DNA of 63,702 bases, filler included, from Psammoneis japonica (Eukaryota), in NCBI GenBank assembly GCA_008632985.1. It is 4 parts of 4 records of this genome, joined end to end, with 100 filler letters (N's around TTAATTAATTAA, not from the genome) between each part and the next. Parts side by side here need not be neighbours in the genome. Positions count along the whole stretch, not along the records: positions 40,492 to 60,607 come from QPGO01000453.1; 3 more parts are not named here. One strand, given 5' to 3'. The stretch's first letter is position 1. Each line of letters begins with the position of its first letter. Made by a program: the position numbers and the translations under genes. Positions 19,709 through 60,707 of the stretch are shown piece by piece. The notes under the pieces were generated by a model, which saw only the letters and a list, made by a program, of their open reading frames with translations, had not been told where the DNA came from and ran no database searches.

Positions 19709-19805
<97 letters not shown>
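19708..19805. repeat. (GTT)~32 microsatellite
   Basis: Perfect trinucleotide run. Confidence 0.98.
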
Positions 19806-20079: not shown

Positions 20080-20179
20080 NNNNNNNNNNNNNNNNNNNNN
20101 NNNNNNNNNNNNNNNNNNNNNNNTTAATTAATTAANNNNNNNNNNNNNNNNNNNNNNNNNNNNNNNNNNNNNNNNNNNN
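20080..20179. other. Artificial contig spacer (N44-TTAATTAATTAA-N44)
   Basis: 100-nt N run with a six-frame stop linker, identical at three places. Confidence 0.98.
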
Positions 20180-29760: not shown

Positions 29761-29778
29761 CTCAAGCAAACTGGGGAG

Positions 29779-32599: not shown

Positions 32600-34899
32600 A
32601 ATGGCCCTTCCGCCCCACAACACGTGGACAGGATGTGGCTGCATCAGTGCTGACTGACAAACCAGGCAAGCAAATTGCACGCGATGCAAAATCATTGCGC
32701 CTTAGAGGCCTCAGTTGCTTGTCACGTCTGCACAGTGGCAGAGGTGACTGGGGACCATTGGTGACAACGCGACAGCATGCAGCACACCAAGTGCTCACCG
32801 GTTGCAAATTTCGAGGGGTGCCGGTCACTGTTGCAGACAAGCCATGGTCCAACGCTGAGCTCCAAGGCAGCATCGCTCGAGGACCACACAAGTCCGCCTA
32901 CGAATGCATTGAGTTTTTGTGCGAAGACATGTCTGACTGTGTCGACAAGGGTTTCTGGGTGGTTGTTCCATGCAACGACGTCCAAAATGAGCCCAATCTG
33001 CGGCTGAGTCCCATTGGCGTTGTCCCACAACATGCACGTAGACCACGACCGATTGTGGATTGCACATTCTACGGTGTTGATCCCTCTGCTCAGCCCAACA
33101 TGCCAATGGAGTCCATGCAGTTCGGTCGCACGCTGGACCGCATCCTGCGGTGCGTTCTCCTTGCCAATCCCAACAAGGGCTGCGTCCATCCAATGAAGAT
33201 TGACCCAGCTGACGGTTTCTGCCGCATGCAGCTGGCGCCCGAGCAAGCACCCACACTGGGTGTGGTTTTTCCTCAACTTCCCGGGGAACCTCCCCTGGTG
33301 GCCATGCCAACTCGGTTGCCCATGGGATGGTCCAACTCGCCTCCGGCATTGATTGCCAGCCAGTGCGCAACCATCGGGCACCGGAACACCCACTCGAACC
33401 TTGCCTTGACAGCCGCCCACCAAAGCACCACGCTGTCACTGCTGACGTGAATCCATCCATTGCTGTCCCAGTGCCAGACACGCCAGATCCACACCTCATG
33501 CACCGCCGCCGGCGGCACCTCCAACATGTCGACATCTACGTTGATGACTTCATTGGCGCCGCCCAAGGCTCCAAACAATCGCTGGCGCAACGTGCATCGC
33601 ACGATCATGCACGCCATTGACGATGCATTTCGTCCACTCGACAACCGAGACCACGCGAGTCGCAAGGAGCCAATCTCAGTCAAAAAGCTCCGCAAAGGCG
33701 ACGCCACTTGGTCAACGCAGAAGGAGGTCCCAGGGTGGATCATTGACACTTTGTCCATGACCATCCGCCTTGCGCCGCGATGCCGCGAGCACCTCCGCAC
33801 CACACTGCACGAAGAGTTTCCCCACCATCGCAAGCGGGCAGCGCTCACCGACCTGCACAAGCTTCTTGGCGAACTGCGATCCCTCACACCCGGCATTCCC
33901 GGGTCTCGCAATCTGTTCTCCGAACTCCAGGAAGCCTTGCTCCACACCAAACCCGACGGGCGAGTTTGTCTTGCCCGCAATTTTCATGACACATTGGACG
34001 ATTTTTGGTTGTCATGCCGCGGGCTCGATCTCCACCCCACCTGTGTCCAAGAACTTGTTCCCCTGTCGCCCACTGTCACGGGCTGCCATGATGCAGCCGG
34101 TCATGGTGCAGGTGGCGTTCTTCTCCCTGCGCCGTCAGCGGTCGCACGCAGCACCACGCTGCATTGCTCCACTGCTTGCCATCGGAGACCACAACACAAT
34201 GCCGGACCCATCGTCTGGCGCATGCATTTCCCTCAAGCAGTCACCGACCGCCTGTCCACCTTTAAGAATCCCCGCGGCCCTGTTGCCAACACCGACTTGG
34301 AGTTGGTTGGCAGCATTGTGCAATCCTGTGCCGCGGCGGACTGTTTCGATGTTCGAGAGCGCACAGTGCTTGACCGCACGGACAACACCGGCACTCTCTT
34401 TCATCAACGCAAGGGCTCCACCATGACTGCGAAGGTCGCAGCACCCCTCCTTCGATGCCAAGGTCACCACCAACGTTTCCACCGCCACCTGTCTCTCCAC
34501 GACTGCTTGCCGGGACCGTTAAACACCGCTGCAGACGACGCCTCTCACTTGCAACATTTGTCCAACCGTGCCTTCTTGCAACATTTTAACACTCACCACC
34601 CACAGACTCCCTCTTGGCGCCTTTGGACCCCGCCACCCGAGCTGCGTTCCTGTGTGATCTCGGCGCTGTGCAGCGTGCCATTGCCCACGGCATTGCCGCT
34701 TCTTCCGCCAGCTCCAGCAACACCCACTGGGACCTCTGGCGAAGTTTCTGTGACGACTTGGCCCTCGACCCTCTCTCACAAGACGTCGATGACCCAGTCA
34801 TCTTTTTCCAAGTTTTCATGCACCGATTCTGTACAGGCGCCATCGCCCCACGTGGCAATCCCGTCCGCGCACGCACCGCTGAGGGTGCCTTGCGGTTGA
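32600..34899 (+). pseudogene. pol: Ngaro-like RT-RNase H; small deletion/frameshifts near 33350 and 33570
   Basis: RLSPIGVVPQ..RRPRPIVD, KIDPADGF, RLPMGWSNSPP, IYVDDF; RH HDAAGHGAGG, DLEL, TDN, PGPLNTAADDAS. Confidence 0.9.
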
Positions 34900-35768
34900 T
34901 TGGCCAAACGTTCGCTGCAATGGGGTCCCCGGACCCGCGGCACACACTCCAAGGCAACATGGATTTCCGCATCAGCCGCCAAATCCGTTTCTACAAGAAA
35001 GAGGATCCTCCGCCAGAATGGGTCAAACCGGTCCCCGTCGCTGTCCTCTTGTGGATTGCCCACGCCGCTTCCCCAACCAACCATCCGGGCACCCAAGCCA
35101 TCGCAGACATGACTGCTTTGGCCTTTTTCTTCCTCCTGCGGCCAGGCGAATGCACCGCCACCCCTTCCGACACCACTCCATTTCGGTTGGGGGACATTCG
35201 CCTCTCTGCTGGAGGTGCTTGCCTCGATTTGTTCACCTGCACCGATGAACACCTCGACACCGCCACCTTTGGCACGCTCACTTTTGCCACACAGAAGAAC
35301 GGCGTGCGTGGCAAAGTGACAGGCCTTGGCCTGTCCAGACACCCTGACCTCTGTCCAACACATGCCCTCATCTGTCGCGTGAAACATCTCCGCGCCTTTG
35401 GTGCCACACCAGACACGCCCCTGGGTGTGTGCTTGCACAACAACACCTGGTGCCGTGTCTCTCCCACCGACATCACCAGCATCCTGCGCACCGCAATTCT
35501 GGCAATCAGCCCCGCTGCGCTGGGTTTCACACCTGCCGATGTCTCCGCTCGCTGTTTGCGCGTGGCCAGTGCCATGGCCCTCCCATGTGCCCATGTTGAC
35601 GCCGACGTGATCCGCCTCTCAGGCCGATGGCGCTCCGACGAGATGCTCCGTCACCTCCACTTACAAGCAGAACCCGTCATGCGCAATTTCGCAACCCGCA
35701 TGTTGGCGGGTGGCCAATTTGTCCTGCACCCCAATGCCGACGTGCCCCTTGCTGCCGCCGACCCGTGA
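34614..35768 (+). CDS. Tyrosine recombinase of the Ngaro-like element; open frame, but the catalytic Tyr position reads His
   Basis: LAFFFLLRPGE (R), QKNG (K), SARCLR (R), GRWRSDEMLRHLH (W; Y->H). Confidence 0.9.
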   Translation: MAPLDPATRAAFLCDLGAVQRAIAHGIAASSASSSNTHWDLWRSFCDDLALDPLSQDVDDPVIFFQVFMHRFCTGAIAPRGNPVRARTAEGALRLIGQTFAAMGSPDPRHTLQGNMDFRISRQIRFYKKEDPPPEWVKPVPVAVLLWIAHAASPTNHPGTQAIADMTALAFFFLLRPGECTATPSDTTPFRLGDIRLSAGGACLDLFTCTDEHLDTATFGTLTFATQKNGVRGKVTGLGLSRHPDLCPTHALICRVKHLRAFGATPDTPLGVCLHNNTWCRVSPTDITSILRTAILAISPAALGFTPADVSARCLRVASAMALPCAHVDADVIRLSGRWRSDEMLRHLHLQAEPVMRNFATRMLAGGQFVLHPNADVPLAAADP

Positions 35769-37592: not shown

Positions 37593-40391
37593 ATGCTTCA
37601 TTGGGTGGAGGCGAAAAACAAGCCTCTGCGCGTTCTCCTCGACAGCGGAACATCGTCAACCATAATTTTGCGCAAATTCACGCGGAAACTCAGAACAAAA
37701 GCATCCGCCACCAAACTCTGGGAAACCAAAGGAGGGCTCTTCACGACTGACAGTCGATGTAAGATCCAATTCTCCTCACCCGAATTTGACAAACACAAGA
37801 TGATTGAAACAACGGCACATGTTGACAACTCCCCTTCTTCTTCGAGTCGTTGTGACATGATCATGGGACGCGACTTAATGTCAAGTCTGGGACAATGTGG
37901 ACTTCTCGAATGAAGAGATTAAATGGGAAGATGCAACTGCTCCCATGAAGAATGTTGATGCACTCTTCGATGCCAATGTTTTTAAGTTGATTGCCGATCA
38001 CATTGAGGAATCTCATGCAGTGATTGGTCTTAATGACAGGGTCAATCGGATCCTTGACTCAGACTGTCACGCTGCAAACCTCAACAATGTGACCGCAGCA
38101 GCCACTCATCTAACCCCTGAAGAGCAGAAGCAGCTGAACTTCCTCTTAAAAAGATTTGAAAACCTTTTCGATGGTTCCCCAGGCAAATGGACCGGGAAAC
38201 CGGTGGATTTAAAGTTGAAATCGGGCGTGAGTCTGCATCATGCCAAACCATTTCCCATGCCACAAGCCTTGGAGATGACTGCTCGTAAGGAGGTTGAAAG
38301 ACTGTGCAAGTTGAAGGTCTCAAGAAAAACAAATTGTTCTGAATGGGCGGCTCCAACCTTTGTTCAACCCAAGAAAAACAGCAGAGTTCGGTTCTTGTCC
38401 GACTTTCGTGAGCTGAACAAGAGGTTAATTCGCACTCCGTTTCCTCTGCCCAATGTTCAGGATGTGCTACAGAAGCTCGAAGGCTTCATGCATGCAACGT
38501 CCCTAGATTTAAACATGGGACACTGTCACATCGAATTGACGCCGCACGCACGTCGCTTGTGCACGATCGTCATGCCTTGGGGCAAACATGAGCACTGTAG
38601 ACTCCCGATGGGAATCTGTGGAGCTCCAGACATTTTCCAAGAGCACATGAGTGAGCTCATGGCAGGTCTGGAGTTCGTCAGAACTTGTGTTGACGACACA
38701 TTGTGTCCTGCAAAAGGTGATTTTCAAGACCACCTCAAGAAGCTTGAAACGGTGTTCTCACGCCTGGAACAAGCCGGATTGAAGGTCAACGCCGAGAAGT
38801 CCTTTTTCGCTAAACCCAAAGTAGACTGTCCAGGCTTTCATGTCACCCGCAAGGGCATCAGCCCGATTCCAAAAAAAGCAGAAGCGATTCGCGCGATCGC
38901 AACTCCCAAAACTCGCAAGGAATTGCGACGCTTCATCGGTGTGATCAACTGCTGTCGAGACATGTGGCCTCGACGATCTCATGTTTTAGCTCCTTTAGCC
39001 AAACTCACTTCTACCCAAGTAAAGTGGCAATGGACCGAAACAGAACAAAAAGCCTTCGAAAATATGAAGCGCATCATCTCCAAAGACATGCTGTTGTCAT
39101 ACCCGAATTTTAACATACCCTTTGAGATATGTGCCGATGCTAGTAATTCTCAATTGGGGGCGGTTATTACTCAGAAAAACCGACCAATTGCCTTCTACAG
39201 CCGCAAGCTGAATGGAGCGCAGACGCGTCATGCTACAACGGAAAAAGAACTATTGTCCATAGTGGAGACGTTAAAAGAGTTCCGCAATATACTGTTTGGC
39301 CAACAGATAAATATATATACGGATCACAAAAATCTCACACACAAAAATTTCACAACGGACAGAGTCATGCGTTGGCGTCTAATGATAGAAGAATACAGTC
39401 CCAAAATAATATACCTTGAGGGCAAGGCAAATGTTGTCGCAGATGCGATTAGCCGACTTACTATGAAGAAAATAGAACCTATGGAAACCCTCAGCACAGA
39501 AGAGCTAGCTGAAAAGGTCCCACCAAAATCCTGCGACAATGTCTTTCCGTTAAATTACAAAGTTCTTGATTATGAACAAAAACGGGACAAAGACATTCTC
39601 TCCCAATTGTCGAATAAGACGTTTCATACGAAGACTTTCGTGGAGGCGAGCGAGACCGGTTGCTCACATGTCATAAGGATAAAATTGTCGTCCCGAGGAC
39701 GTTACAAAAGGCAGTGATAGATTGGTGTCATACGCACCTTCTCACCCTGGCATAAATCGAACAGAAGAAACAATCTCACAACACCTGTGGTGGTCCACCT
39801 TGCGTGAAGACATACGAAAATACGTGTCGAGATGTGAGACGTGCCANAAAATTCAAAAAGAAACACAAGAAATGTGGACATTTACCTCCTAAGTGCGCAG
39901 AATCCGCACCGTGGGAATGACCATGTGTGACCTTATTGGCCATACAAAATACGTCGTAAGGGAAAGAAAAAACCCCCAGTCCTGAAATGTTTGACCATGA
40001 TCGATCCAGCAACCGGATGGTTTGAAGTTGTGGAAATCCCAAATGAGGAGTCCACAACTGCAGCTGGACTGCTAGAACGAACATGGTCAAGCAGACATCC
40101 TTGGCCATCGTTGGTCACATGTGACCGTGGAAGTGAGTTCATCGGACACCAATTTAGAGAAATGGTGCAAGATGATCATGGCATTAAAGTCAAGCCCACA
40201 ACTGCACAAAATCCACAAGCAAATGCAATTGTTGAATGCGTGCATCAAGCACTGGGGAACATGCTCCGTACATTTGATTTGCAACATGCACCTCTGGACA
40301 CTGAGGATCCTTTCGCTGGAACACTGTCAGCGGCAGCGTTTTGCGTGCGGTGCGTTCTGCGCATCACATGGAACCACAACCAGTGCGCAAG
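37593..40391 (+). pseudogene. pol: Gypsy-1 pol (PR-RT-RH-IN), frameshifted
   Basis: ORFs 37593..37913, 37897..39717 and 39991..40391. Confidence 0.9.
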
Positions 40392-40491
40392 NNNNNNNNN
40401 NNNNNNNNNNNNNNNNNNNNNNNNNNNNNNNNNNNTTAATTAATTAANNNNNNNNNNNNNNNNNNNNNNNNNNNNNNNNNNNNNNNNNNNN
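40392..40491. other. Artificial contig spacer
   Basis: N44-TTAATTAATTAA-N44. Confidence 0.98.
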
Positions 40492-43400
40492 GGCTTCTCC
40501 CCAAAGAGGCATGCATGGTTGTCAACCATGCGCTCAATGCACTTGCGGGGAGCAAGGCACAGGGTGCCGTCTGGGTCACGGGTGAAGTCGCAGCCAAGAT
40601 GAAACTCCAATGGTCCAGTGCCCTTGAGCTTGAACTTGCATTTCTCCATGAGGGTGTCTGCAAAAGCCTGGGGGGTCCTTCATGGCAAAGGCCAGGTCGT
40701 CCACATACACTGCCATGCATTTGCAGTGGTCACCATTCCCATGCAGCCAGATGTCGGGTTTGGCTTTGCATGGGAAGAAGCCTTTGGCATGCAAGCAATC
40801 AGCAAAGCGTTCATGCCATCTGAGGCCAGAGCTGCGGAGTCCGTACAAGGCCTTGTGGATGACAAGGATGTGTCCTTCCAGGTCACTGAACTTGGTAGCC
40901 TGCCACAATGTACAGTTTCTCCTTGGTCGTAGCTTCGAGGCAGGTGTTCCCAACGTCAGTGGCCCAGGTCTCTAGTTCATTGAGTTCAGCCAGGAAGATC
41001 ATCATTTGCAGGCCACGGAGAGACACTGCTCTGGAACAGACACTGTTGACAGGCACGTCTGTGAGGTGTCCATCGGCAACAAGCCTTGCTTTGTGCCATC
41101 CGTCATGTTTGATGTCGCAGATGAGATGCACCCGGATCTTCTTGTGCCCTGATGGAGCACTAGAATCCTTGTGGTGTCCGCAGTCATGGAAGACCTCGCA
41201 CTCATCAAGCTGAGTCATCTCAAGGTCCATTGCATCTCCCCACTTGCGGTTGCCATTGCGCTCATCAAGGGCCATGGCATGCTTGCAGTCCCATGGCACT
41301 CCATGCCCGCACTTGCATCATGGCGCAGCACGAAAGGAGCGCAACTTGGCTTGGTTGGCCATGCGGAATGGCTTCTTCTGACGAAGGGCTATCTTGCAAG
41401 AACGTCTCCATCCTTTGGTTTCTAGAAGGCCGTGCTCACGCACGTAGATGGCACAGGTGACGGGGTCGTCCTTGGCAATGATGGCAAGGAGTTCAGACGT
41501 GATCTCCCCATTCTCCCATTCAAGCATGATGTTGCAGCTTGAGTCTTTCCAAGAGGGAACATGGGGTTGCAATGGTCCTTTGTGCGACACGATGCATCGG
41601 AACTTCCAGAGGGTGGTGTCCTTGTCTTGCTCAATGTGGTGCATGATGTTGTTGCAGGCCAGGACTTCCTTGCATTTGTCATTGTTGATGGAGCAAATGA
41701 ACTTGACCAGTTCAGGATTGTCTCCGATTTTCCAGTCATGGTCCTCAACGGCTTTGACGATGTGGGCTCTGTGGTGTTGTCCATCCTGTTGTGGCTTCAT
41801 GAGGAAGGTGCATGCGATGACATCCTCAGGGTCAAAGACTGGCATTTTGGGCATCCTGATCGCCTCCCCATCTGGTGAATCTGGCAAATCCTTGGAGTCA
41901 TGGCAGGATTTAATGACAGGTTCAGCAGATTTCTTGTCAGGAGGATCAAGATGCAGGTTTGGAGCAGACGGATCACGGGCGGAGCACACGTTGGAACAGC
42001 AGAGAATCTTCTGAGTGTCATCAGAAAGAATCTTGAATGTCATTTGGTGACCAACGTGATCGGCGATGCAAACAAAGTGACCATGTAATTCACGGGATTC
42101 GGGCAGGCAGTCAGAATCATCCAGGTGGCAGTGCACGGGTTCCCACCATTGAAAGTGGAGGAGCGGGCTGATGTTGGGAGTAGAGCCAGATGGCACCTCG
42201 GTGGGGGCATGCCAGTGGAGCTTGGCAGAGGCTGTGTGGTTGAGCACAAAGCACACGCACATCAGGGCAAGCAGCCAGGTGTAAGCCAGAGACCCGAAGC
42301 GATCCATGATGGTGTTGGCCATGGTCTTCACAGTTTGGCAGTGGCATTCAGCAAAATTCTGATGCTGTTGGTGAGGCTCGCTTTGCCAACTAGAAATGAA
42401 GAGGGCAAGAAGGATGCCAAGAACCTTGTTGCTGATCTCAAGCTGAGCACGGTTGCTGATGAGCTTGGACGGGGCACCATGATTGCGAATGTTGTCTTTG
42501 AGGGTGTTGACAAATTCTTTGTCAGTTTTGGTGCCACACACATCAGTGACAAGAGATTCTGTGCCGACAAAGAGGTGGGCGCTGGTGCAACCAGAGTCAA
42601 CAGCAGGGGTGTCAGAGCAGACCGTGTTGGTGGCAATGGGTTCATTACGTCAGTGGACATTGAGAGCTGGGTTGGGTGATTTGCACGCCTTTTTCAGGTG
42701 CGTGATGGCTGGCATGTGTTGGGGACCTTGATGGACCGATCATTGACATTGTGTTTGCACCACTCCAGCTGGCTGCAAGAGCGCATCGTCTTCCCCTTTC
42801 CAGTGCAGGTGCACTGGTGAACAATGGCAATGGCAGGGCCGCGTTGCGTGTGGATGACACCACCGGCAGTGACAATGGGAATGTTGACTGGTTGATGATC
42901 ATCGACACCTTGGACGTCAACCTGGCGACCAGTGTGGGCAATGACATGAACATCATCACCGGCGATGCCACCGTTTGCACCACAATCCACAAGAGCACCT
43001 TTGCAAGTTGACTTGTGGGTCGAGGCAGAGTAGACAACATTGTGGTTGTTGATGCGATGGCATTTGTGGCCATTAATCTCAATGTCAGTGTCGTTGGGCT
43101 TCGCGTCGGAGCGGATGGAAGGTGCAGATCTGGGCAGTTTCTTGCCAGAACGGGCGGAAGGAGGCCGTTCAGGTGCCAGGAGATGTTGCAAGTCGCCGGG
43201 TGGCAGAGGCTTGCACCTGGTGAGATGAGCCAGAATGGGGCCAGCATCGGCTGCATCGGCTGTGGCATGGGATTGGGCGAAGGCTGACGCAAGATCATGA
43301 GTGTTGGTGGACAAGTTGACATCGCCATCGCTGCCAATGTGGAGGTCGTGCAGGTTGACTGCCGTCAAGTCATGGCAGTTGCCGGTGTGGGTGGTGCGCG

Positions 43401-45648
43401 AGCCAAGAATGATGGCCTTGGTGGACTGGGGTAAGGTGTCCCAAATGTGCTGATGGTCCGGCGGAATGTGACGCCACATCATCTTCAGGGTCGTCAGGGA
43501 CCAGGTCATGTTCGTAGATGGCACGGCACCGAGCGCGAGGAGCCGTCTTGGGGGTGAACTTGCTGTTGCACTGTGCTGCAGCAGAAAGCAGGAGTCCACA
43601 GCACTCTTCATAAGAGAGCCCCTTTCCATTCTGCACGCGGAACTGATCGGCCTGATTCTTCACTGAACAGAGTTCCTTGACAGGATGAATGGCGTTCTCA
43701 AGCATGACACGTTTCTGGCCAGCAGAGAAATGGTCTGTGCCCGGGATGAGAGCTTCACACTTGTGGAGCTGGTCCTGCCAGTGGAGTGTGAAGGCATGGG
43801 TGGATCCTTTCCAGGTGCCATCACTGAGGCGAGCAGTGGTGAGGTACATGAGAAGGGTCAAGGACTCCAGGGATGCATGAGCAGAAGCAAGGGCACACTT
43901 GGAGAGGTCCCAACACACCGCTTGAGCATCAGAGGAGCCAACATGTTGACAAACAAGAGCCTTGCCTTTGTCATTCTGCAAGATCCATTCAAACATGGCG
44001 AACATGCACAGTTCAGCAAACAGGGCCTTGTCCTCAGCTGCAGAGGGCTTGCACGTCGGATCGAGAATGCGTGTGACGTCTTGGGAGTGGGCCTGTGCGA
44101 TGATGGAGGTGTGCCATGTGTGCCACTGTTTGTCAGACTTGAGAAGCGCGAAGGTGAGCAGGTCACGTTCGATGCCTCGTTGAAAGTCACGCACGGAATC
44201 ACGTGGTTTGGGTGGCAACGAGCCAGGAGTAGGAGCAGATGGTGCTGCACCCATGGAGAGGGACGCTGCATGCTCAGGACTAAGATGACAGTTGGTGAAT
44301 TCCTCTTGCGTGAACAATTGAGGGTCATTGCTGACATCCATGCCGCCGCGTGCTTTTACCGTGTATGGGCTAATCAGTGCAGCTGTCTGTGCTTTGTAAC
44401 CACGTGGCAAGGGCATTTGATTGGTGCCGTCATTGTACACAAGGGCATCTAATTGCATCGGAGTAAAAGTGAAAAGGTCCTGATGCGAATCGGTTCCATC
44501 AATGTTGAGGGTGGAGCACAGTGGACTGTCTGTGGCTTGATTCAAAACAGTGCCTAGAATGTGCTCAAGGCCATTGATTTGTTGTTGCCTGGTGAGAACC
44601 ACGTTGCAACCAGGTGGATGTCGGAACTGGCTGGAGTCAGAGGGTGAGCTTGAAACAACTTGAAACTTGACTTGAAGTCTTGAACTGTCTTAAGAGTCAG
44701 AAGCCACCGGGCTGTGATGTCCCATTCGTAGTTAGGTGCCAAGCTTCCCATCCGGTCTGTAGAGTTGTGCCGGCACGTCCGGACCCGCAGCCAGCGACGC
44801 TTTGGGTTGCTTGAGAGCAGAGTGACGGGTTTAAAAAACCCCTGCTGACAAGCCAACTGGAGGTGGACAAGACCTCCAAACCGTTCTTATTTTGTGTCGG
44901 TTGGATGACCCCATCAGGCCGGCCAAATTTGGCGCTGTGGAGGGACGAACAAACGTGGGAAATGCACCCTCGCCCCAATGCAGGCTGCAATCATGAACTG
45001 CTTCCTCTCACAGTTGTCCTCGTGGACCTTGCAGGACTGTAAAAGACCAGCAATCCGGTGTGGATACAAGGCGGTAGACTTGGCATGCATGGAGCAGAGC
45101 CAGAGTCAAAGGTTTGTGTCGTGTGCGTGTGGACGCGAGCGGATGGATTGGTAAAATCCGCCACAAGGAATCCGGAATCTCGGATGTCTGAGAATTTGGG
45201 AATTCCTGGCCAAACAAACATCCGTTGAATAAACATGTCCAACGATGGGAGGCATTGGATAAATCCAAACGTGTAGATTTTATCCAGCATCCACCAGTGA
45301 AGAAGGTAGACACATGCTTCCACCACCACTGGTGCGTGTCGTCAAAAATTTCTCAATGACAACAATGAACGCTCAATGGACAACAAAGAGCAAGACTGTT
45401 AATCTGACAAAAAATGAAGATGACTGGGTGGAAGAAAACAACAACTCCTCACTGCTGTCTAAACAGCAGATGAGTCTCTGTGCAGAGACCGTTGCAGGAG
45501 CCGAAAGACTGGTGTCGTGATGTTGGTGCTGCTGTCATTGTTCTTGTGAGCCTGTGGCTCAAAAGCAAACTACATCGCGTGATGCACCTGGAACTAAGAG
45601 CACACATGGTCATGTGTGACAAACTAAAATCTTGTTCAAATTCTGTCA
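40492..45648 (-). mobile_element. Copia-2, same family as Copia-1, more decayed, with internal deletions; cut by the contig end in RT; inserted into the RNase H of Copia-3
   Basis: gag starts at 44602 (MVLTRQQQ); PR, IN and RT (YVDD) are colinear with 24160-28870; deletions near 43480 and 42720; LTR at 45405-45648. Confidence 0.92.
45405..45648 (-). repeat. 5' LTR (244 bp) of Copia-2
   Basis: TGACAG...TTGTCA on the minus strand, homologous to 22945-23220, followed by the same PBS. Confidence 0.88.
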
Positions 45649-46059
45649 TGTGTGTTGACGTGCGCCGTTCTCCATTCGTCTCTGGCCGCACCTTCTCGCA
45701 CAAAGTGGTGAGCCAGACTATGACATTTCTTCTTTGGCTTTGAGTCAGGGATGGAGGTGTTAGCCAAAACAGACTGGTCATCTCCATGGACACAGGCTGG
45801 TCCAACAACCAGGATCCCCATCATCCAGAGCTTGTGGCAAAGCCCACGGATGCACTCCGCACACTGTTTCATGCTGGTGAACTCTGAACCAAATGAACTC
45901 GTTTCAATGCTCGTCTGCTTCTTGGACATCCAACAGACAGGTGCTGAGTTCAAATGGATGAGAAAACCAGTCTGTGATGGGCAAGTGATTGAGTTGTCCG
46001 CATGATCAGCATCCACGAAGGCATGCATGATCATGCCAAATCCTCTTGCTTGAGGCATG

Positions 46060-46491
46060 TGCAGTGTGCCTCGCCACTGGACAACACGGCGAGACCGTGC
46101 ATGAGCCTCTTGTACGTGACAACGCAGTGTTGTCAACACGTGCCTGGGAAGCACGACCACAGGAGGGCGTGGCTCTAGATCTCAGGCAGTTCCAGAAGGA
46201 TGCTAAGAGAGCATCCGTGTGAAGCACACCAGCCCGTCGTCTGGCCAACGATGGCAGCGTGATTCCACACGATGACATCACTCGTGCACAGCGCGTGATG
46301 GCTTGATTCACACGATCCACAATGCAAACGCACGATCGATTTGATGCGATCCAAGTGCGAATGAACAGGGATTTGGCAAGATTCCCTGTTCGCATGATCC
46401 CATTTTCTCTGCTCTAAACCAGCTCATAATTTTCACAACGACAAAGTCGCAACACATCTTCTTTTTCAGCACCTGGTGCATGCATGGGGCA
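46060..46491 (+). repeat. 5' LTR of Gypsy-2
   Basis: Ungapped direct repeat of 52642-53073. Confidence 0.95.
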
Positions 46492-46552
46492 CAGCAACAT
46501 TGCTCCCGCATGTTGTGCGAGGCAACGAAATCTACAGAAACGAAACTACGAA

Positions 46553-47629
46553 ATGTTGGTGGGACCGACAAATCTCAAAACGACCATGAAGAAGCGGATT
46601 AAGCCGCCGATTCCGTTCGCACGGCCGGAGAAGAAAGAGCTGCAGCAGGGCAAGTGCCAGACGTTCAAAATGCGCAACAACCCCACTGATCCGGACAGTC
46701 CAACGCACGAGATGGGCATCCTGCACCTTTCTACGGCTACATGCGAGACACTCCCAATCTTTCTACGCAACGTGGATCGCGTGCACGAAGGACAAAACAT
46801 GACAACCGGGCCAGCGAAATTTGCCCTCATGCGAGACCTGCTGCAGGGCGATGCTCTGACGTCATTTGACAATGCTGCTGACATGCAGGCATCCGAAACC
46901 AATGCTGCACACGCAGTGTGCATGGCGAAGCTAAAGGAAAGTGTCTTCCCACATGGGGCGGCGCTGTTGCAGAAGCGTTGTCTGAGGCGCTTCATGTGCA
47001 AACCCGCAGAGGTTTCCACTCGTGACTGCATCGCAAAGGCTGTTGAAATTAACGGCTGTGTCTCTCAGTTTCCACCCGTGACGGAGGATGGAGCAGCACC
47101 GGCACCATCACCTGATAACGAACTATGTGACATGTTCGAGTGCGGTGTGCCGAACGCATGGCAGAAGTTCATAACGTTACAGAATTTTGACCCGTTGGCG
47201 CATGCCATCGCCGAATTTGTACAGTTCTGCGAGCGCATCGAGCAGGTCGAGCTTGCCGAAGGTAACCTGGACCAACACACTGAGGTTCCACGTAAGCGGG
47301 GACGTACAACGGACAATCCTGAGTCGTTGATCACGAACCAATGGAACACCCAGAAGTTGTGTATGTCACACGGGACTAACTGTGGACATCATACGGAGGA
47401 TTGCCGTCAGCTCAAGCACCACGTGAAACGTGTCAAGACTGGCCATTCCAATGACGGAGGCAGCAAGCCTAACAAAAAACATCGGAATGAGGAAGACATT
47501 GACACTCTCATCGGATCGAAGGTCGAGGAGTTCTTTGCCAACGCTCAGAAAAAGCACAAGGCATGCGAGGAGGAGCTTAATCACTTCCGCGACCTCAACT
47601 TAAGTGATTCCGAAGATTCGGACGCCTGA
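46553..47629 (+). CDS. gag: Gypsy-2 gag (open, hypermutated)
   Basis: LLQGDAL, QKRCLRR, CMSHGTNCGHHTEDC knuckle. Confidence 0.85.
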   Translation: MLVGPTNLKTTMKKRIKPPIPFARPEKKELQQGKCQTFKMRNNPTDPDSPTHEMGILHLSTATCETLPIFLRNVDRVHEGQNMTTGPAKFALMRDLLQGDALTSFDNAADMQASETNAAHAVCMAKLKESVFPHGAALLQKRCLRRFMCKPAEVSTRDCIAKAVEINGCVSQFPPVTEDGAAPAPSPDNELCDMFECGVPNAWQKFITLQNFDPLAHAIAEFVQFCERIEQVELAEGNLDQHTEVPRKRGRTTDNPESLITNQWNTQKLCMSHGTNCGHHTEDCRQLKHHVKRVKTGHSNDGGSKPNKKHRNEEDIDTLIGSKVEEFFANAQKKHKACEEELNHFRDLNLSDSEDSDA

Positions 47630-47665
47630 GAAGGGGGCCGACACGACACAGGCAGTTTTAATGCA

Positions 47666-50600
47666 TTGGATGAATGTATAAATGAACAACTGAATTACCA
47701 TCGTACACGTGTTGTAGGCCAATCCCGTAAACGAGTTAAAAAGACTCATCTTACTCCAATCTTGTTTATGGCTATGAACACTAAACATGGCAAGGGCAAG
47801 ACTCAAACCATTAAGGCACTGCTAGATAGTGGCGCCAGCAGTACTCTACTCGATAGTCGATACTGTAAGCGTCTGCGAAGCCGTTCAACGGCTGAGACAA
47901 ACTGGACTACGGTAGCAGGCTCGTTCAGTACGTCTAACGACTGTACCGTTAAATCTCGGTTACCAGAATTATCCGAAACTGCAGAACTTAAACATACCGT
48001 CCACGTACACAACGGAAAGTTGGGCAAGTACGATATGATTATTGGACGTGACATTCTGGAGACACAAGGCATTGACATTGTCTTCTCTAAACAGATGATA
48101 GAGTGGCTATTAGTCAATGGAGAAGTACCAATGAGGCACGTAGATGCTACGGTGGAAACCTCCTTCTATCTTCAAGATCCAGAACACTTATCTTCGGAAA
48201 CCGACCGGATTTCACGTATTTTAGACGCTAAGTACGCGCCGGCCTGCCTCGAGGACATAACGCGAGCGGCAATAGGAATTTCTACAGTTCAACAAAACGA
48301 CCTTTTGGCACTATTGAAACGCCATGAGTCCTTATTTGATGGGACATTGGGAGAATGGAAGGGAGAACCCTACCATATCCAACTCAAGGAGGGTGTAGAA
48401 CCACACCACGCTCGTCCGTATAAAGTACCTCGTGCGTACGAAGCTACGCTACGTAAAGAAGTAGAACGCCCAGTGCGTGTCGGTGTTCTCAAACGCGTCA
48501 ACCGATCCCAATGGGCAGCTCCATCATTTATCATGCCGAAGAAAGACTCAACGGTGCGCTTTATTAATGATTTCAGAGAGCTGAATAAACGGATCAAGCG
48601 ATTGCCTTATCCGATTCCTCATGTCCAAGACATGCTGCTCAAGCTCGAAGGCTTTGTGTGGGCTGCATCTCTGGATTTAAATGTGGGCCATTGTCACATC
48701 CGATTGGATGCTGACAGCAAGAAGCTCTGCACGCTCATCTTCCCGTGGGGCAAGCATGAGATGCAGGCATTGCCCATGGGGCCATGCAATTCGCCAGACA
48801 TTTTCCAAGAACGCATGTCAGGCTTGTTTGAAGATCTGTCGTTCGTTCGAACGCACTTAGATGACCTTCTCGTCATGACGAAAGGCACCTGTGAAGATCA
48901 CCTCAACAAACTTGAAGAAGTTTTATTGAGGGTCCAGAAAGCAGGACTAAAAGCCAACGCAACTAAATCTCACTTCTGTCAAACCCAATTAGAACACTTG
49001 GGTTGTCTGGTCAACAGAGACAGAACGCGACCAACACCTGATAAAGTCGACGCCATCAAGCGAATCACGACCCCAACCAACAAACGCGACCTGCGGTCAT
49101 TTGTTGGTGTGGTGAACTGCTGCTGCGACACGTGGATTAGACGTTCTGAAGTCTTGGCTCCGCTAACACGACTCGCAAGCGAGACTGTTAAGTGGGAGTG
49201 GACGTCCGTTGAAGACGAGGCGTTCAAAACCGTTAAACGGGTGATGTCGGATGATGTTTTGTTGTCACATCCTGATTTTAACAAACCCTTTGAGATGCAT
49301 GCCGATGCCTCAAAACATCAATTTGGAGCAGTTACATCCCAAGACAATAAACCCATCGCCTTTTGCAGCAGAAAGCTTCGCAGTGTGCAATTAAATCACA
49401 CAACAACGGAGAGAGAATTGCTCGCCATTGTGGAGACGTTGAAAGAATTTCGAACGATTCTCCTTGGTCATCGTGTGGTTGCACATGCTGATCATAAAAC
49501 TCTTGCGTGCAAAGCATTCAATGCCGAGCGCGTTATGCGCTGGCGGTCAACATGCGAAGAATGCGGTCCCGAATTATGCCATGTCAAGGGTGCCCACAAC
49601 CTGGTCGCTGACGCTCTTAGTCACCTTTGGCCAGCACCCAGCTTGCCTTCCGAGGCCAATCCAGATGTAAAAGACACTCCATCGAGTCGTCCTTTGCATG
49701 AAGCTTTTAATGCAGACACGCAAAACGATGTCTCTCTGCCTGTTAGCTTCAAGCGCATTCAAACAGAACAACAAAAGGACAAGCGCCTGCTCTCCCGAGC
49801 TGAGGACTCATCCAACCACTCCATTCGCGCGCATCGTGGGGGAGGGTCATCACGACAGTTAATCTGTCATAAGGACAAAATCGCAGCACCACAGTCATTG
49901 CAGGTTCCGCTAACTGAATGGTGCCACGAGACACTGTGTCATCCAGGTGAGACACGTGCGGAAATGTCCATTGCGCAGCACTTCTGCTGGCCTGGCATGA
50001 GGTCTACGGTGCATTCTACATGCGTTAAGTGCAATCGATGCCAGAAGACAAAACGCCGAATGCAGCATCATGGAAAGCTGCCAGAAAAGGTCGCTGAGAT
50101 AATTCCATGGGAGACTCTGTGCATGGACATGACAGGGCCACACAAAATTCAAAGACGCGGAAAGGACACTTTGCAATCATGGGCAGTCACAATGATCGAC
50201 CCAGCAACCGGGTGGTTCGAGATTAAAGAAGTGTCTGCGAAACGCGCAGACGTCGTAGCAAACGTCGTTGAACAAACGTGGCCATGCAGACATCCGTGGC
50301 CAACCCAGGTGGTTTATGACCGTGGGACAGAATTTATGGCAGAATTTAGCCAGATGATCAAGGGGGACCGCCGACCTATTTTTTCCGCGTTTGTCCTAAA
50401 ATTAGCAATGTGTTTGAATGCGTTTATTCACAATTGTCAATTTTAAATGCAAGAATTGTTCCATCGCCCACGAAAACGAGAACATCAGGCACCGCGATCG
50501 AAGCACGACGATGACGGCAATTACGCTATCTCTCAAAATTGGCCCAGTGGCACGAGGGACGAAAGCACATAAATCAATCTGCACCACACGACGACAATGA

Positions 50601-51294
50601 AACCAGTGAGCATCCCTCGTGAGGTGACACTTTGCAACTCACCGCTCGTCGCGAACATCATCATTGTTGCTCGTGCTTTTGTCGTGTCATTTTCTGTCGC
50701 GACCCATCAAAAGCACGTAAAAACCCGGAAAAGACATGCGAAAAAAATGAGCCGACGGCCCGCCTTAAAAATGACTGTGGGATTTTGAAGAAACCCATGA
50801 GTGAGCGAAATCCACAGGCGAATGCCACAGTGGAACGTGTGCACCAGACACTTGGCAACATGGTGCGTTCCTTTTCAGCACAGGATGTGGAACTGGACAA
50901 AGATGACCCATGGAGTGGCATCCTCTCCACAGCAGCCTTTGCCATTGTAGCTGCGGCACACACGACCACGCGTGCAAGTCCCATGCAATTGGTCTTTGGA
51001 CGCAATGCGGTTTTGTCTGTTGCCCATCGTGCCAAGTGGAAGCACATAGAAACCAGAAAGCAGAAGCTCATCCACTTAAATGACAAGCATGAAAATCAGA
51101 AACGCAAGGAGTGTCAATGTGCCGCAGGGCAATTGGCACTTGTCAAACAGGAACAATCCTCTAAATGCGGTTCTGACAGCTGTGCAGGACCCGCCAGAGT
51201 TGTCTGTGCACATGACAATGGCATGTTGCGCATCCAGAATGGAGCGCTGATGGATGCGTACAATCTACGGCAGATTGTGCCCTGTCACCAGTGA
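47666..51294 (+). pseudogene. pol: Gypsy-2 pol (PR-RT-RH-IN), integrase split by a MITE
   Basis: LLDSGAS, HLDD, HADAS, HPGE..CVKC..C, TMIDPATGW, YDRGTEF, then after the MITE NPQANATVER. Confidence 0.93.
50362..50764. mobile_element. MITE, 403 bp, ~30-bp imperfect TIR (GG..CC termini), TTAA target (Kolobok-like ends)
   Basis: Left gggggaccgccgacctatttttt versus right reverse complement ggcgggccgtcggctcattttttt; flanks TCAA/TTAA; removal restores QMIKND. Confidence 0.8.
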
Positions 51295-51311
51295 GACATT
51301 CTGTCACTCAA

Positions 51312-52615
51312 GTGGGCGCACCGGAGTTTTTGGCCCGTTCACTTTCTACGTGGCCTGGCACAACCCAAATCTGTGTAGATTCAGTGCATTTTGCCCTGTG
51401 GAACAGTTTTTGGGAGTGTTTTCTGGCTCGCGGCTCAAAACAACACGCAAAATGACACGGACAATGGCGTTTCACCGATTTGAAAAATACGATCGTCTCT
51501 GAGGTTGGAACCTGTGTGCTCTCAACGGAATCTGGTGCGTCACATCATAAGATGTGAGACAAGCTTGAGAACATCCAGGTTCATGTGGGTGGATCATGGT
51601 GTAATTTTGACCTGAAGATTGGTGTTGATGCCGCCGCTTTTGTTGCATCAACACGCAGCTTATGCATCACCATTCATGCTGTGCATTTCGTTGAGCACTC
51701 ACACGTTCAAATTCTTTCAACTTGCACACATGTTCTCTTTCCTCATTGTTGTTTTGTTCTGCAGGGTCTCCCTTGCCATGAGCCATCCCTGAGAGAGAAA
51801 TGCTTGCTTTGAATGTCACTTCTACCTTGCAACGGCCACGGCAGTCTTACGACAAGTCCAAGTCACAGATGCAGCATCAGGATGACTTCATGTCAACAGC
51901 TCAGATTTGTCGTCGAGCAATTTTGCCGCGCATTTGACGTGCATCCAGAAGGTGATGCGGAGTTTTGTTCGACAGAGAAACGCACCATGGCAATTGTGAA
52001 GGGGTGGATTGTTTCTTTGTTCTGTGGGGCAGTTTACAAACTAGAAACATGTGACTCATTTGCCTGCATTGTCAGCCAATGCAATAAATTTTGAGGGTGA
52101 AAGCTGGTGCACCGTGCACAAACAGCGAACCAAGCCTCAAAAGTGCAGCAGGCCAGCTAGAGAGTTTACGCCAATGGGAAGAACTAGCTTTGCTGTTCAT
52201 CATGGGACAGCAGATTTTATTTCATTGGGGCAACAAGTCTCCATTGCTGTTCTAGAGTGACCAGCATTGGTTTGGCCGTTGCAGCCTTCATGCATGCCCG
52301 CCTCTTGACAATCTGTTTTATTCTGAGATTGTGCAATGAAAAAACCTTTGTTTGCAACATTCCATCACAAGAGAGAGCTCACCAGCTTTGCTTGGCCCTT
52401 TGAAGTGATCAGGCAAGTGAAAGAGGAGCCAACAGAAAGACGCCAACGACGACAACGAACGACACCATTTTGATGCACTGTCGTCTGGTGGTGCAGTGTC
52501 GTTGATGGAGTGCCGTGCTTTCTGTTTTGCACTGCTTCTGTGCAGGAATGTACGTGCTTGGCTCTTGGGCAGTTCCTGCATAAAAAGGGCACCAGGCCAT
52601 CTCCGGACCGCCCTC
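51312..52615. mobile_element. 1.3-kb non-autonomous TIR element, TTAA target, G(A/T)G..CTC ends (Sola3-like)
   Basis: Left gtgggcgcaccggag versus right reverse complement gagggcggtccggag; flanks TCAA (51308-51311) and TTAA (52616-52619); sits between the Gypsy-2 pol stop and PPT. Confidence 0.65.
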
Positions 52616-52641
52616 TTAACGGCCCTGATCATGGGGGAGTG

Positions 52642-53073
52642 TGCAGTGTGCCTCGCCACTGGACAACACGGCGAGACCGTGCACAAGCCTCTTGTGCGTG
52701 ACAACGCAGTGTTGTCAACACGTGCCTGGGAAGCACGACCACAGGAGGGTGTGGCTCTAGATCTTAGGCAATTCCAGAAGGATGCTAAGAGAGCATCCGT
52801 GTGAAGCACACTGGCCCGTCGTCTGGCCAACGATGGCAGCGTGATTCCACATGATGACATCACTCGTGCACAGCGCGTGATGGCTTGATTCGCATGATCC
52901 ATGATGCGAACGCATGATCGATTTGATGCGATCCAAATGCGAACGAATGGGGATTTGGCAAGATTCCCCACTCGCATGATCCCATTTTCTCTGCTCTAAA
53001 CCAGCTCATAATTTTCACAACGACAAAGTCGTGACACATCTTCTTTTTCAGCGCCTGGCACATGCACAGGGCA
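52642..53073 (+). repeat. 3' LTR of Gypsy-2
   Basis: Direct repeat of 46060-46491, preceded by the PPT. Confidence 0.95.
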
Positions 53074-56000
53074 CATGCCATCAAGCATCTCTTCCGCTGT
53101 CACCAGACCAAACTCAGAAGTTGTCCAGTCTCGTCATGCAAAGAGAGCTTCATCAATGGCAGGACAGGTGGGGTCAAATGCCATCTCGGTGTTGTGATGC
53201 CTCTTGAGATGCACAAAGATGTGGCACACCTGGTCGAGGTGCCCTTCTCGCAGCATGGCCAAGTGCAACAACATCATGGACACCTCAAGACAAATGTCGA
53301 CATGCCCCAGCTCAACCATCCAGTGCAGGACACCAATGAGCAATTGACAGTGTGCAGCATCAGTCAGAGTCAATTCCTTGCTCGTGTCATGCTCAGGATG
53401 ATGCGAGCTGCTGAGCGGGGTTGGAGCCTTGGCAGGCAACTTCAAACCCTTCGACTCCAGAAAAGTCTCGACATTCTCAACCAATGCTTGAGCATGCTGG
53501 GAGGAACTGAATGCCCATGCTTTGGCCCCATTCTCAAGTTCCACCTTTCGCAGGTGTCCTCCAAGGCACAGACTTGGAGGTCCGATTGATGACTCCTTCA
53601 GTGGGAAGAACTTGCCAATCTCCCCTTGTAGAATCTCCTCTGCATTGTTGGAGATACACAGAACATCGTCAGTGTACATCAGGGTCAGCCTTGCAAGGCT
53701 TGAAACCAAGATGGGACATGCACGCACGCAGATGATTCCGGAAATCTCATCCCGCTGACTTGCCACCACACAGAGCCCGACGAATGAGGCCTTGCTTGCC
53801 AACATTCTCGAGACCAAACTCTGGGCCACATGTGATGCAGTGCTTTTGGGATGAGGGAGCCTGAAGGCACGCATTCTGAATGTCCGCTGCCATCATGTCA
53901 ATGTTGTTCAAGGCAGCGTACGTCAGGGCAACACGCACACTTTCCCCAGAGACAATGCCAGCGTACGTCAACCCTTCGGGACTTGAAGTCTTGTGTCCAT
54001 CAAGGACCCATCTAGCCTTCCTAGCCATGGTCATCTTAACATCAAAAGTCAGGTGACCTGACTGTTTGGACCAACCAACAGGAGTCGGAGTGTCATCATC
54101 CAGGATCTCAAATGCAACACCCACGTCACGCATCTCCTTCTCGATTGCCAGTGCCCAAAGTTTGTTGCCATTCTGGCGGTCAAATTCAAGTGCCTCTCCA
54201 ACTGTCCCAGGAAGTTTGACTCCACACTTGTGCGTCACACGTTGCACACGCACCTTGACTGCAGATACGATGACATCTCGCTTGCAAAGGGTGTGCGGCA
54301 TCCACCATCAAAAAGCCGGTTCATTGTCGATGCCTCGGGCTTTGGCAAATTCCGCAGTCTCCACTGGGTGCAATTCCTTCATGTCCTTCAGGGAGACCCA
54401 AGACTCGGTCCCATCCTTCCACAGAACTAGGAATTTCCAACCGCACATTGTCTTGTGCAACCGTTTCTGCTTGCCAACCTTGGCGCACATGTTGTCTTTG
54501 GTCACTGCTGCATCATCTTTGGCGAAATCGAGTGTGCTGTCAAAAACATTGAGAGTGCAGCCCTCCCAGTCAACTTGAGAGAGCAAGTTCTCAGCTGTGA
54601 CGTTGGCGGCATGTTCCTTCACCTCCCCATCAGGAAACTCGACTTTGTAAACCAAAGTGTTCATGATCGGGTTGTCATTGTGCGTGTCAACCGATCAACC
54701 ATCTGGATCCACAGACCGGCCAATTACGCGGACCTGCTGGAGCTTGTCACCCTGAGGCAGAGCAACCTCAGCATGGATGAGTTGGTCACACAAGGGGGTT
54801 GGATTGATGGCATTCCCAGTGGCATCAACTGGGTCATCAAATTCAGGTTGATCTCTGGGCTTTTCATCTGCATCCCGATGCGGAAGGAACTGCTTGCCTG
54901 CAGAGGACACGGAACAAGCTGCAGAGCCCCAGCGTGATTCAATGCACTGGTCAAAAATCTCACGCTTGCATTTCTCAGTGTCGCTGTTCAACTCAGCAAC
55001 TGAAAGGGGTCAGACGGAATGTCGTGGCACAACATTGCCATTGCCCTTCAGCACCCACTGAGCCATGTCGTTTCCTTCTCCTTTCACAAGGCCTGGCACA
55101 CGCCCGAGTGCCTTGCGATCAAATGGAAAGGGATTGGTGTGCTCACGGAAGTGGCACCATTCATGCCATCCAAATTGAGCAAGGTTGGACATGTTGCCTT
55201 CTTCCCCTGTCACAGAGAAGTGCGGGTTCCTCTCCTCAAGTTGGAACAGGTTCCGGGCTGTCAAGTTGTTGGTTCTTGCCTGTCACTCAAAGCAGCAGTC
55301 CCAGAAAGGCAAAGGGCACAAGGACTCTTTCATGTCCTTGTGTGCCACCTCCTTGAGCAAGCCAATGTGCAGTTCAGCACAATTCGACAGCAGCCCAAGG
55401 CTGGCTCCAATGGAGTGGAGAAATTGTTGAATCTCATCAGACTTCTGTGCTGGGTCACTGTCACATGCAATTGCCTCCGGTGCACCCACTTCCTTGGCAA
55501 ACATCTTGAGTGCCTGAGGTGTCTCAGATCAAGCACACATGGGCACCACATGAACGAAGCCCTTTGTCAGCAACAAACAACTGCATGCATGAGTGTCCTC
55601 GTGTGGACTTCCCAGCCTTCTTGCTTGCAAAGAAAGCATCCATGAAGAAATGCTGGGCAATTCGTCAATGCTGCAGCATCCTGTTGTTTGTTGAACAGTT
55701 CCTTGAGAAAGCTGGGTCTTGGGTGCGTCAAAGGAGTTGAGTGGTGTTGTCCATGGTCCGCTCTGCATCCTTGGTGCTGATTCTCCAGATCTTGGACAAG
55801 TGTTCTGGAGATGCCCCCTTAGACTTGGAGGCAGTGGTTCCTCCAACATGGACCTCGGGATCAGATTCAAAATGCTCCACAAGATGGTCAACAATGTCTT
55901 CAAGTTGGACATCCTCGAAAATGTCAAAATCAACATTGTCATTCTGACCCGAATCATCTTGAAGTCCTGCCGTTGTGGATCCTACAGAGGATGCAAAAAC

Positions 56001-60607: not shown

Positions 60608-60707
60608 NNNNNNNNNNNNNNNNNNNNNNNNNNNNNNNNNNNNNNNNNNNNTTAATTAATTAANNNNNNNNNNNNNNNNNNNNNNNNNNNNNNNNNNNNN
60701 NNNNNNN
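60608..60707. other. Artificial contig spacer
   Basis: N44-TTAATTAATTAA-N44. Confidence 0.98.

Follow-up and report, generated by a model that had tools for sequence, protein, structure and literature searches.

Introduction

The closest described counterpart of the mutation pattern analysed here comes from the alga Bigelowiella natans, where, of 302 nuclear point mutations in mutation-accumulation lines, 231 lay within two integrated viral regions; almost all of these were A>G or T>C, and every such change fell at TpA (Mettrop et al. 2026, bioRxiv 10.64898/2026.01.13.699255). In the text of this preprint, coding sequences low in TpA are reported to be enriched in reverse-transcriptase (RT) and endonuclease-RT domains and an ADAT2-like adenine deaminase is proposed, while 'LTR' (long terminal repeat), 'retrotrans' and 'CpG' occur nowhere in its main text. 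It was the sole matching report found in a literature search, which otherwise returned papers on fungal repeat-induced point mutation (RIP). The present analysis concerns a 63.7-kb window of the Psammoneis japonica assembly GCA_008632985.1 (63,702 nucleotides, four parts of the assembly joined end to end and numbered along the whole stretch), and within it the LTR retrotransposon Gypsy-2, at positions 46058-53075. The sister LTRs of this element, its coding region and the neighbouring retroelements very probably record a near-saturating conversion of TpA to TpG or CpA that acted on both strands of chromosomal DNA after insertion, accompanied by a slower decay of CpG.

Differences between the sister LTRs of Gypsy-2

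The LTR pair of Gypsy-2 was recovered independently by a repeat search (46058-46357 / 52640-52939) and was extended without gaps, by alignment and self-BLAST, to the following limits.

46058 to 46493, + strand: Gypsy-2 5' LTR with TG...CA ends, starting with TGTGCAG and ending with GGGCACA; ungapped 436-bp match to 52640-53075, 93.3% identity
52640 to 53075, + strand: Gypsy-2 3' LTR, placed by repeat search, alignment, self-BLAST and base-by-base comparison

When the two LTRs were compared base by base, 29 of the 436 bases differed, by transitions only, in 20 events. A preliminary description of this stretch had recognised the pair and the exclusive presence of transitions, although its length of 432 bp is corrected here to 436 bp. 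Its breakdown by type of difference was confirmed by the alignment. Eight events were double differences with TG in one LTR and CA in the other, hereafter reciprocal sites, one of them being TGT/CAC, and eight opposed CG to TG or CA. Two opposed TA to TG or CA at exactly the positions proposed (46113-14 TA / 52695-96 TG; 46183-84 CA / 52765-66 TA), and three single bases (46189, 46355, 46389) lay outside any pyrimidine-purine step. Across the eight reciprocal sites, each LTR carried four TG and four CA. The unchanged dinucleotide pairs comprised 4 TA/TA, 23 CG/CG, 33 TG/TG and 44 CA/CA, and TA/CG pairs were absent.

This arrangement was compared with 20,000 trials in which 29 random transitions were placed on the Gypsy-2 LTR. 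Of the 29 differing bases, 26 lay inside TA, CG, TG or CA steps (random trials: mean 16.2, maximum 25), and 9 adjacent pairs differed (random trials: mean 1.86, maximum 8). The observed pattern was matched in none of the 20,000 trials.

A second LTR pair in the window, that of the element Copia-1, was placed as follows.

22945 to 23220, + strand: Copia-1 5' LTR, with the target-site duplication GAGGA just before it (22940-22944)
29779 to 30235, + strand: Copia-1 3' LTR, containing a tandem duplication of about 183 bp and followed by GAGGA

Along the 275 bp compared (22945-23219 / 29779-30053), 10 bases differed in 8 events, with 8 transitions and 2 transversions. Both TA sites that had been named for this pair were found (23049 T / 29883 C; 23103 G / 29937 A); the pair is too small to serve as a test by itself. 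The tandem halves of the 3' LTR (29871-30053 / 30052-30234) were 95.6% alike and differed at two TG/CA, one TA and three CG sites. Among the 16 in-window repeat pairs compared, 15 contained TG/CA double differences, and only two TA/CG pairs were present in the whole set.

Direction of change in the coding regions

Gypsy-2 was polarised by comparing its coding region with 60 protein homologues of 50-58% identity, a conserved Tyr column being one with Tyr in at least 80% of the homologues. The element contains two open frames.

46430 to 47629, + strand: Gypsy-2 gag-like open frame, 399 aa, without a Pfam match
47630 to 50446, + strand: Gypsy-2 pol frame, open over 938 aa but inactivated, with Pfam domains in the order gag-asp_proteas, RVT_1, RT_RNaseH_2, Integrase_H2C2

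The pol frame is lost near 50372. The LTRs, their TG...CA ends and the order protease, RT, RNase H and integrase are those of a Ty3/gypsy element.

Only 3 of the 21 conserved Tyr columns were kept in Gypsy-2, 11 having become His (CAY) and 7 Cys (TGY), whereas other conserved residues were kept in 348 of 412 columns (Fisher P = 1.5e-11). When each homologue was left out in turn as a control, conserved Tyr was retained at 0.79-1.0 (median 0.96) among the 60 gypsy proteins and at 0.87-1.0 (median 0.95) among 40 copia proteins, no single one having more than 3 or 2 His plus Cys, respectively. The three Tyr codons that survive in Gypsy-2 are confined to a short patch of the element, outside which the loss is complete (17 of 17).

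47600 to 48600, no strand assigned: patch of Gypsy-2 that largely escaped TpA conversion, with 12-18 TA per 200 bp (rest of the element: 1-7)

For each altered conserved column, the change was typed as the single base change that restores the consensus residue. Seventy conserved columns were altered, of which 56 could be explained by one base change, as listed here.

TA>CA: 18
TA>TG: 18
CG>CA: 5
CG>TG: 2
Other transitions: 4
Transversions: 9
More than one change needed: 14

Changes from TA to TG or CA thus made up 36 of the 56 one-step changes, against 7 from CG to TG or CA, a large difference in rate with which the full alignment agrees. All six Thr-to-Ala changes were preceded by a codon with a final T.

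The same polarity of TA to TG or CA was found in Copia-1, in Copia-2 and in both pieces of Gypsy-1.

24586 to 29918, + strand: Copia-1 gag-pol, two overlapping open frames with RVT_2; conserved Tyr kept at 7 of 41, with Cys 22, His 8 and Phe 4
40492 to 45606, - strand: Copia-2, an older relative of Copia-1 with 66-80% DNA identity, its LTR being used as outgroup; conserved Tyr kept at 4 of 16, with Cys 10 and His 1
37879 to 39714, + strand: Gypsy-1 RT/RNase H frame, with Pfam RVT_1 and RT_RNaseH, eroded likewise; conserved Tyr kept at 3 of 16, with Cys 6 and His 5

The only TA site of the Copia-1 LTRs with an alignable outgroup, 23049, is also TA in the LTR of Copia-2. Wherever the comparison could be run, in the coding changes and at 23049, it spoke against the opposite ancestry, with CG at the reciprocal sites and TG or CA as the older state at the TA sites. 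TA and CG are the ancestral states, and TG and CA the derived ones.

Origin of the reciprocal TG/CA sites

The reciprocal sites might have arisen from CpG decay only, each being a former CG that mutated on one strand in one LTR and on the other strand in its sister, with the TA sites derived from TG or CA. CpG decay does occur, as seen in the eight LTR sites with CG against TG or CA and in the seven polarised coding changes from CG, and CG is strongly depleted in the oldest tract of the window.

8001 to 20000, no strand assigned: oldest tract; in its 1-kb windows TA is at 0.01-0.10, CG at 0.05-0.21 and CA/TG at 1.59-2.39 of expectation

However, a CpG-only model with a rate of q = 0.148 per LTR, fitted to the 8 single-hit and the 23 still intact CpG pairs, predicts 0.35 reciprocal sites, against 8 observed (Poisson P(>=8) = 3.9e-9). 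The excess of TA over CG among the coding changes also argues against it, as does the loss of Tyr codons, which contain no CpG, and of TA in general, which stands at 0.17 of expectation. An origin by CpG decay only is scarcely credible.

With the loss measured in the coding region (18 of 21, or 17 of 17 outside the patch), a model of TA origin predicts about as many reciprocal sites as observed and few single-hit TA sites, of which two were seen. Neither decay route would produce a TA/CG pair, and the Gypsy-2 LTRs contain none. Taken as an argument from sequence comparison, these results support the view that the reciprocal sites were formerly TA. A single-step flip from TG to CA was also considered; it is superfluous given ancestral TA.

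Site of action and consequences for LTR dating

Sister LTRs of a retrotransposon are identical when inserted. Changes made at the RNA stage would leave them identical, and editing confined to one strand of the cDNA would change all sites in a single direction; therefore, both are excluded for these sites by the differences between the LTRs and by the presence of four TG and four CA in each of them. The coding changes of Gypsy-2 were strand-symmetric as well (TA>TG 18, TA>CA 18), and the older elements around it, together with non-coding remnants, were likewise eroded. These observations support a process that hits both strands of chromosomal DNA after insertion rather than the RNA intermediate, as had been proposed in the preliminary description.

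The divergence of the Gypsy-2 LTRs was 0.0665 over all sites, compared to 0.0156 at the 192 positions outside pyrimidine-purine steps. By Kimura distance, naive dating of the insertion is inflated 4.5-fold, so that the earlier warning of badly inflated LTR ages holds for this pair.

Patchiness, strand bias and sequence context

Besides the patch in Gypsy-2, a second sharp-edged TA-rich patch, with 54 TA per kb, was observed in the Gypsy-1 region at 39001-40000. Such patches of about 1 kb with near-normal TpA could reflect protection, or later conversion from a fresher copy.

Changes in the same direction tended to lie together. In the Copia-1 pol region (26364-29918), 30 TA-change sites formed 6 runs (P = 0.004), and in the Gypsy-2 pol frame (47630-50446), 36 sites formed 13 runs (P = 0.03); in Gypsy-1, clustering of this kind was not detected (P = 0.95). 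The runs would fit tract-wise events, each on a single strand and hundreds of bases long. Together with the patchiness, the strand excess, the sequence context and the shared states described below, they also suggest either some inheritance from edited source copies or a choice of strand that depends on the neighbouring bases.

On the sense strand of the copia elements, TGY exceeded CAY regardless of their strand in the window (22:8 in Copia-1, 10:1 in Copia-2), while Gypsy-2 gave 7:11. Pooled over the two copia elements, the ratio of Cys to His was 32:9, the counts of the two not being independent. The excess hints at a link to transcription, a link to the RNA stage or shared descent.

Neighbouring bases seem to influence the conversion of TpA. 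With both strands counted, the 5' neighbour of surviving TpA was T at a frequency of 0.43 (0.38-0.43), compared to 0.27 in the patch 47600-48600 (chi-square P = 0.003, somewhat optimistic as each TpA site is counted twice). GTAC was counted 10 times in this 1-kb patch, compared to 33 times in the remaining 62.7 kb. Enrichment of TTAA among surviving TpA relative to the patch was not significant (P = 0.22).

Other copies of Gypsy-2 and environmental DNA

Contigs from three sequencing runs of one sample were placed on the Gypsy-2 stretch at 80% likeness. In run X1, 38% of the sampled Gypsy-2 words were present and 6587 contigs fell on the 6.6-kb stretch; runs X2 and X3 yielded 6 contigs and 1 contig and have no bearing either way. 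The 766 variant places in X1 included 199 A>G, 174 T>C, 151 C>T, 150 G>A and 88 transversions. The Gypsy-2 family is therefore abundant, and its copies differ mainly by transitions. Among the 40 variant places listed, two lay in the LTR, 46179 and 46189, and at both of them all covering X1 contigs (40 and 39) differed from the window base. At 46189, all 39 read A, as does the 3' LTR, so the G of the 5' LTR is derived.

An exact 25-base word of the Gypsy-2 LTR gave no matches in metagenome_contigs or in viral_contigs, and protein-guided locus searches for Gypsy-2 relatives gave no confirmed locus in these two collections. A search for shorter proteins did not find a fragment of the same family, the best match having 74% identity. 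When 180 further homologues were checked, 11 short environmental gypsy RT fragments from ENA and JGI contigs (P0258, P0261, P0267, P0275, P0276, P0285, P0289, P0325, P0327, P0340 and P0362) had His or Cys in place of Tyr at 3-5 of their 4-6 conserved columns, each with its own pattern of Tyr, His and Cys. These independent patterns point to the same TpA erosion in other environmental DNA.

Counter-evidence and alternative sources of the differences

Several observations weigh against post-insertion conversion on both strands of chromosomal DNA. The sense-strand excess of Copia-1 (Cys 22 : His 8, P = 0.016) is one of them, as a symmetric chromosomal process predicts none. Copia-1 and Copia-2 share the same state at 7 of the 9 columns where both have His or Cys, and Gypsy-1 and Gypsy-2 do so at 7 of 10 informative Tyr columns; these shared states imply that some of the loss was perhaps inherited from edited source copies, or that neighbouring bases choose the strand hit. 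The eight reciprocal sites of the Gypsy-2 LTRs are polarised only indirectly, via the coding region, and the four TA/TA pairs persisting in these LTRs are too many under one uniform near-complete rate, so susceptibility must vary by place or context. In addition, the target-site duplication of Gypsy-2 is not clean (AGGCA against TGCCA), and the element belongs to a family so highly repeated in X1 that some mixing between copies during assembly is possible.

The strand excess in both copia elements and the states that they share are what would be expected if the RNA or cDNA intermediate had been edited before integration, by ADAR-like A>I conversion or by a deaminase of single-stranded cDNA, with the chromosomal share being minor; ADAR moreover prefers a 5' U, according to the Discussion of the B. 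natans preprint. Editing at that stage would nevertheless give identical LTRs, yet the LTRs differ at precisely these steps. Nor does it account for both directions being present in each Gypsy-2 LTR and, at 18:18, in the coding region, for the erosion of non-coding flanks and old remnants, or for the sharp-edged 1-kb patch that escaped. We regard this explanation as improbable for the bulk of the changes, while part of the TA loss in the copia elements may predate their current insertion.

The unclean duplication, the 6587 contigs of the family and the disagreement of all covering X1 contigs with the window at 46179 and 46189 would also be consistent with LTRs that are not sisters, or that are assembly mosaics of a multi-copy family, so that the differences would be those between copies. 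This was weighed against the sequences flanking Gypsy-2, which contain pieces of another copia element.

45684 to 46016, - strand: Copia-3 fragment upstream of Gypsy-2, blastx match to Copia-1 pol residues 971-1081
53233 to 54442, - strand: Copia-3 fragment downstream of Gypsy-2, blastx match to Copia-1 pol residues 489-751 and 834-905

The Copia-3 fragments are separated by a gap of 66 residues, equal to the 198 nt of flank between them (157 + 41 nt). The flanks are therefore collinear pieces of one copia, with nothing missing or extra at the resolution of the protein alignment, and Gypsy-2 is a simple insertion into another copia despite its unclean duplication. Differences of the same kinds occur in Copia-1, whose GAGGA duplication is perfect. 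Differences between copies would, moreover, also arise on chromosomal DNA, and the direction of change was established independently of the LTRs. Non-sister or mosaic LTRs are thus very improbable. Neither the patchiness nor the strand excess, the runs or the shared states overturns chromosomal TpA conversion after insertion.

Composition of the window and its other elements

Over the whole window, the observed/expected ratios were 0.17 for TA, 0.64 for CG, 1.55 for CA and 1.58 for TG. TA rho was at most 0.43 in 60 of 63 1-kb windows, and also CA+TG rho was at least 1.52 in 36 of the 63, both cut-offs being those of the B. natans preprint, although the rho formula used here may differ in detail. 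The older a region appeared, the lower was its CG observed/expected, at 0.9 in Gypsy-2 and 0.05-0.2 in the oldest tract. That tract, which seems to represent the end point of both kinds of decay, contained diverged internal repeats (9246-9724 / 15738-16228; 12926-13679) and had no Pfam match.

All identifiable regions of the window were retroelements, namely Gypsy-2, Gypsy-1 with a partner copy, Copia-1, Copia-2 and Copia-3, and the sequence is that of nested, similarly eroded retroelements. Copia-1 has the features of a Ty1/copia element, with direct LTRs bearing TG...CA ends, RVT_2 and the perfect 5-bp GAGGA duplication on both sides. No host gene was recognised in the window with Pfam or among its open reading frames (ORFs), including 28 further ORFs for which Pfam gave retroelement domains and one weak Myb-like match only, and no tRNA was found in the window.

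Stop triplets on the + strand numbered 249 TAA, 148 TAG and 1324 TGA, and those of the - strand, read as TTA, CTA and TCA, numbered 224, 159 and 1413. The loss of TAA and TAG leaves TGA as nearly the sole stop, which produces long overlapping open frames in six phases and lets dead elements keep frames of 900-1200 aa. A 1231-aa open frame on the - strand at 1161-4853 had no Pfam match at E <= 0.01, with TA at 0.12-0.18 and CG at 0.79-0.87 of expectation; it may be an eroded non-LTR element. On the + strand at 30919-35765, four successive open frames of 392-482 aa, with a GC content of 58-60%, were without a Pfam match, and the protein atlas neighbours of one of them were eukaryotic clusters and RT-bearing clusters. 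This region is probably another unclassified retroelement. Runs of N at 20080-20179, 40392-40491 and 60608-60707, each a pair of 44 N placed 12 bases apart and spaced by about 20.3 kb, and a single N at 39847, look like marks of masking or scaffolding and not like biology.

Discussion

The pattern can be explained by two context-specific decay processes acting after integration and sharing TG and CA as end products. In the faster one, TpA becomes TpG or CpA by one A>G change, the outcome being set by the strand hit, since TpA is self-complementary. In the affected tracts conversion came close to completion, so that an ancestral TA shared by both LTRs is now TG in one copy and CA in its sister in roughly half of the cases, which explains the reciprocal sites. 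The slower process would be ordinary decay of CpG to TpG or CpA, most likely by deamination of methylated cytosine.

The chemistry of the faster process is plausibly, though with more doubt than confidence, an enzymatic deamination of adenine to inosine on DNA at 5'-TA-3', as the B. natans preprint proposes. The same process might instead act on the thymine of TpA, through a modification of the hydroxymethyl- or formyl-uracil type that mispairs with G and yields T>C, the adenine not being deaminated. As TpA is palindromic, none of the data presented here can separate T>C on one strand from A>G on the opposite strand. 5-Substituted uracils have a tendency to mispair. A dinoflagellate with hydroxymethyluracil was considered as a candidate source, and no result supported it. 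The A>G excess on the copia sense strand would fit damage to the exposed non-template strand better, and thymine damage on the template strand would tend to be removed by transcription-coupled repair, two considerations that argue weakly for adenine; the ADAT2-like candidate reported in the preprint, from another genome, points the same way. We consider modified thymine the less probable of the two chemistries, yet a reasonable minority option.

The process may be aimed at repeated or foreign DNA as a defence. More broadly, and only tentatively, TpA editing could be a widespread RIP-like defence of marine protists, to which this window, which is not from B. natans, would belong, with an adenine deaminase acting on exposed single-stranded DNA, tract by tract and one strand at a time, up to complete loss of TpA. 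This proposal is based on the 11 environmental fragments, on the runs of same-direction changes in Copia-1 and Gypsy-2 and on the escaped 1-kb patch. Protein atlas taxa gave weak leads to Oomycota or Bacillariophyta, each based on 1-2 members, which favour stramenopiles over chlorarachniophytes.

Dinucleotide-specific removal of TpA mirrors fungal RIP, and in the literature found it is so far represented by a single preprint, on one alga. The LTR retrotransposons of the window show where it leads in the long term: Tyr codons become His or Cys, RT motifs included; signals of the TATA and AATAAA types would be expected to disappear too. In genomes of this kind, LTR dating needs pyrimidine-purine steps to be masked if inflated ages are to be avoided, ghost ORFs will be predicted by gene finders, and homology searches for transposable elements become less sensitive. 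Sister LTRs also provide a simple assay that requires the genome only, and other eukaryotes could be surveyed for reciprocal TG/CA sites.

Compared with known systems, fungal RIP, the nearest earlier analogue, resembles the present case in being restricted to transitions, dinucleotide-specific, near-saturating and found in chromosomal repeats, in which it destroys coding capacity and inflates divergence. It works, however, in the opposite direction, as C>T mainly at CpA, which creates TpA, whereas here TpA is destroyed and CpA and TpG are created; RIP-type enrichment of TpA was not found (TA 0.17, CA/TG 1.55/1.58), and the polarity is TA>CA/TG. Decay of methylated CpG, as in vertebrates, plants and many protists, would match the changes from CG to TG or CA in LTRs and coding regions and the loss of CG with apparent age, but it explains only 8 of the 29 differing LTR bases, about a quarter, and none of the Tyr losses. 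Editing by APOBEC3 or ADAR likewise inactivates retroelements through deaminase-type transitions with a preference for neighbouring bases, yet it acts on a single-stranded intermediate, is strand-asymmetric and leaves sister LTRs mostly alike, whereas here both strands are affected and the LTRs differ.

The likeness is closest to the TpA hypermutation of B. natans, which, as described in the preprint text, likewise shows almost exclusively A>G or T>C changes, confined to TpA and yielding TpG or CpA according to strand, couples depletion of TpA with enrichment of CpA+TpG in clustered 1-kb windows and acts in patches. The B. natans type is further characterised by continuing de novo events, at about 1e-7 to 1e-6 per site per generation, and by a restriction to repeated or foreign sequences that spares host genes. 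In B. natans, the evidence is de novo mutation in two viral insertions with TpA depleted about 1.8-fold, whereas here it comes from LTR pairs and Tyr codons. The present case is near saturation (all 17 Tyr codons outside the patch), unlike what that text describes, and its depletion extends over about 60 kb, far beyond the clusters given there. Moreover, hypermutation in B. natans is reported exclusively at TpA, whereas here a CpG component accompanies it (eight LTR sites, seven coding changes), which we read as the second, slower process. The window is thus a near-saturated LTR-retrotransposon example of the recently described hypermutation, beside ordinary CpG decay.

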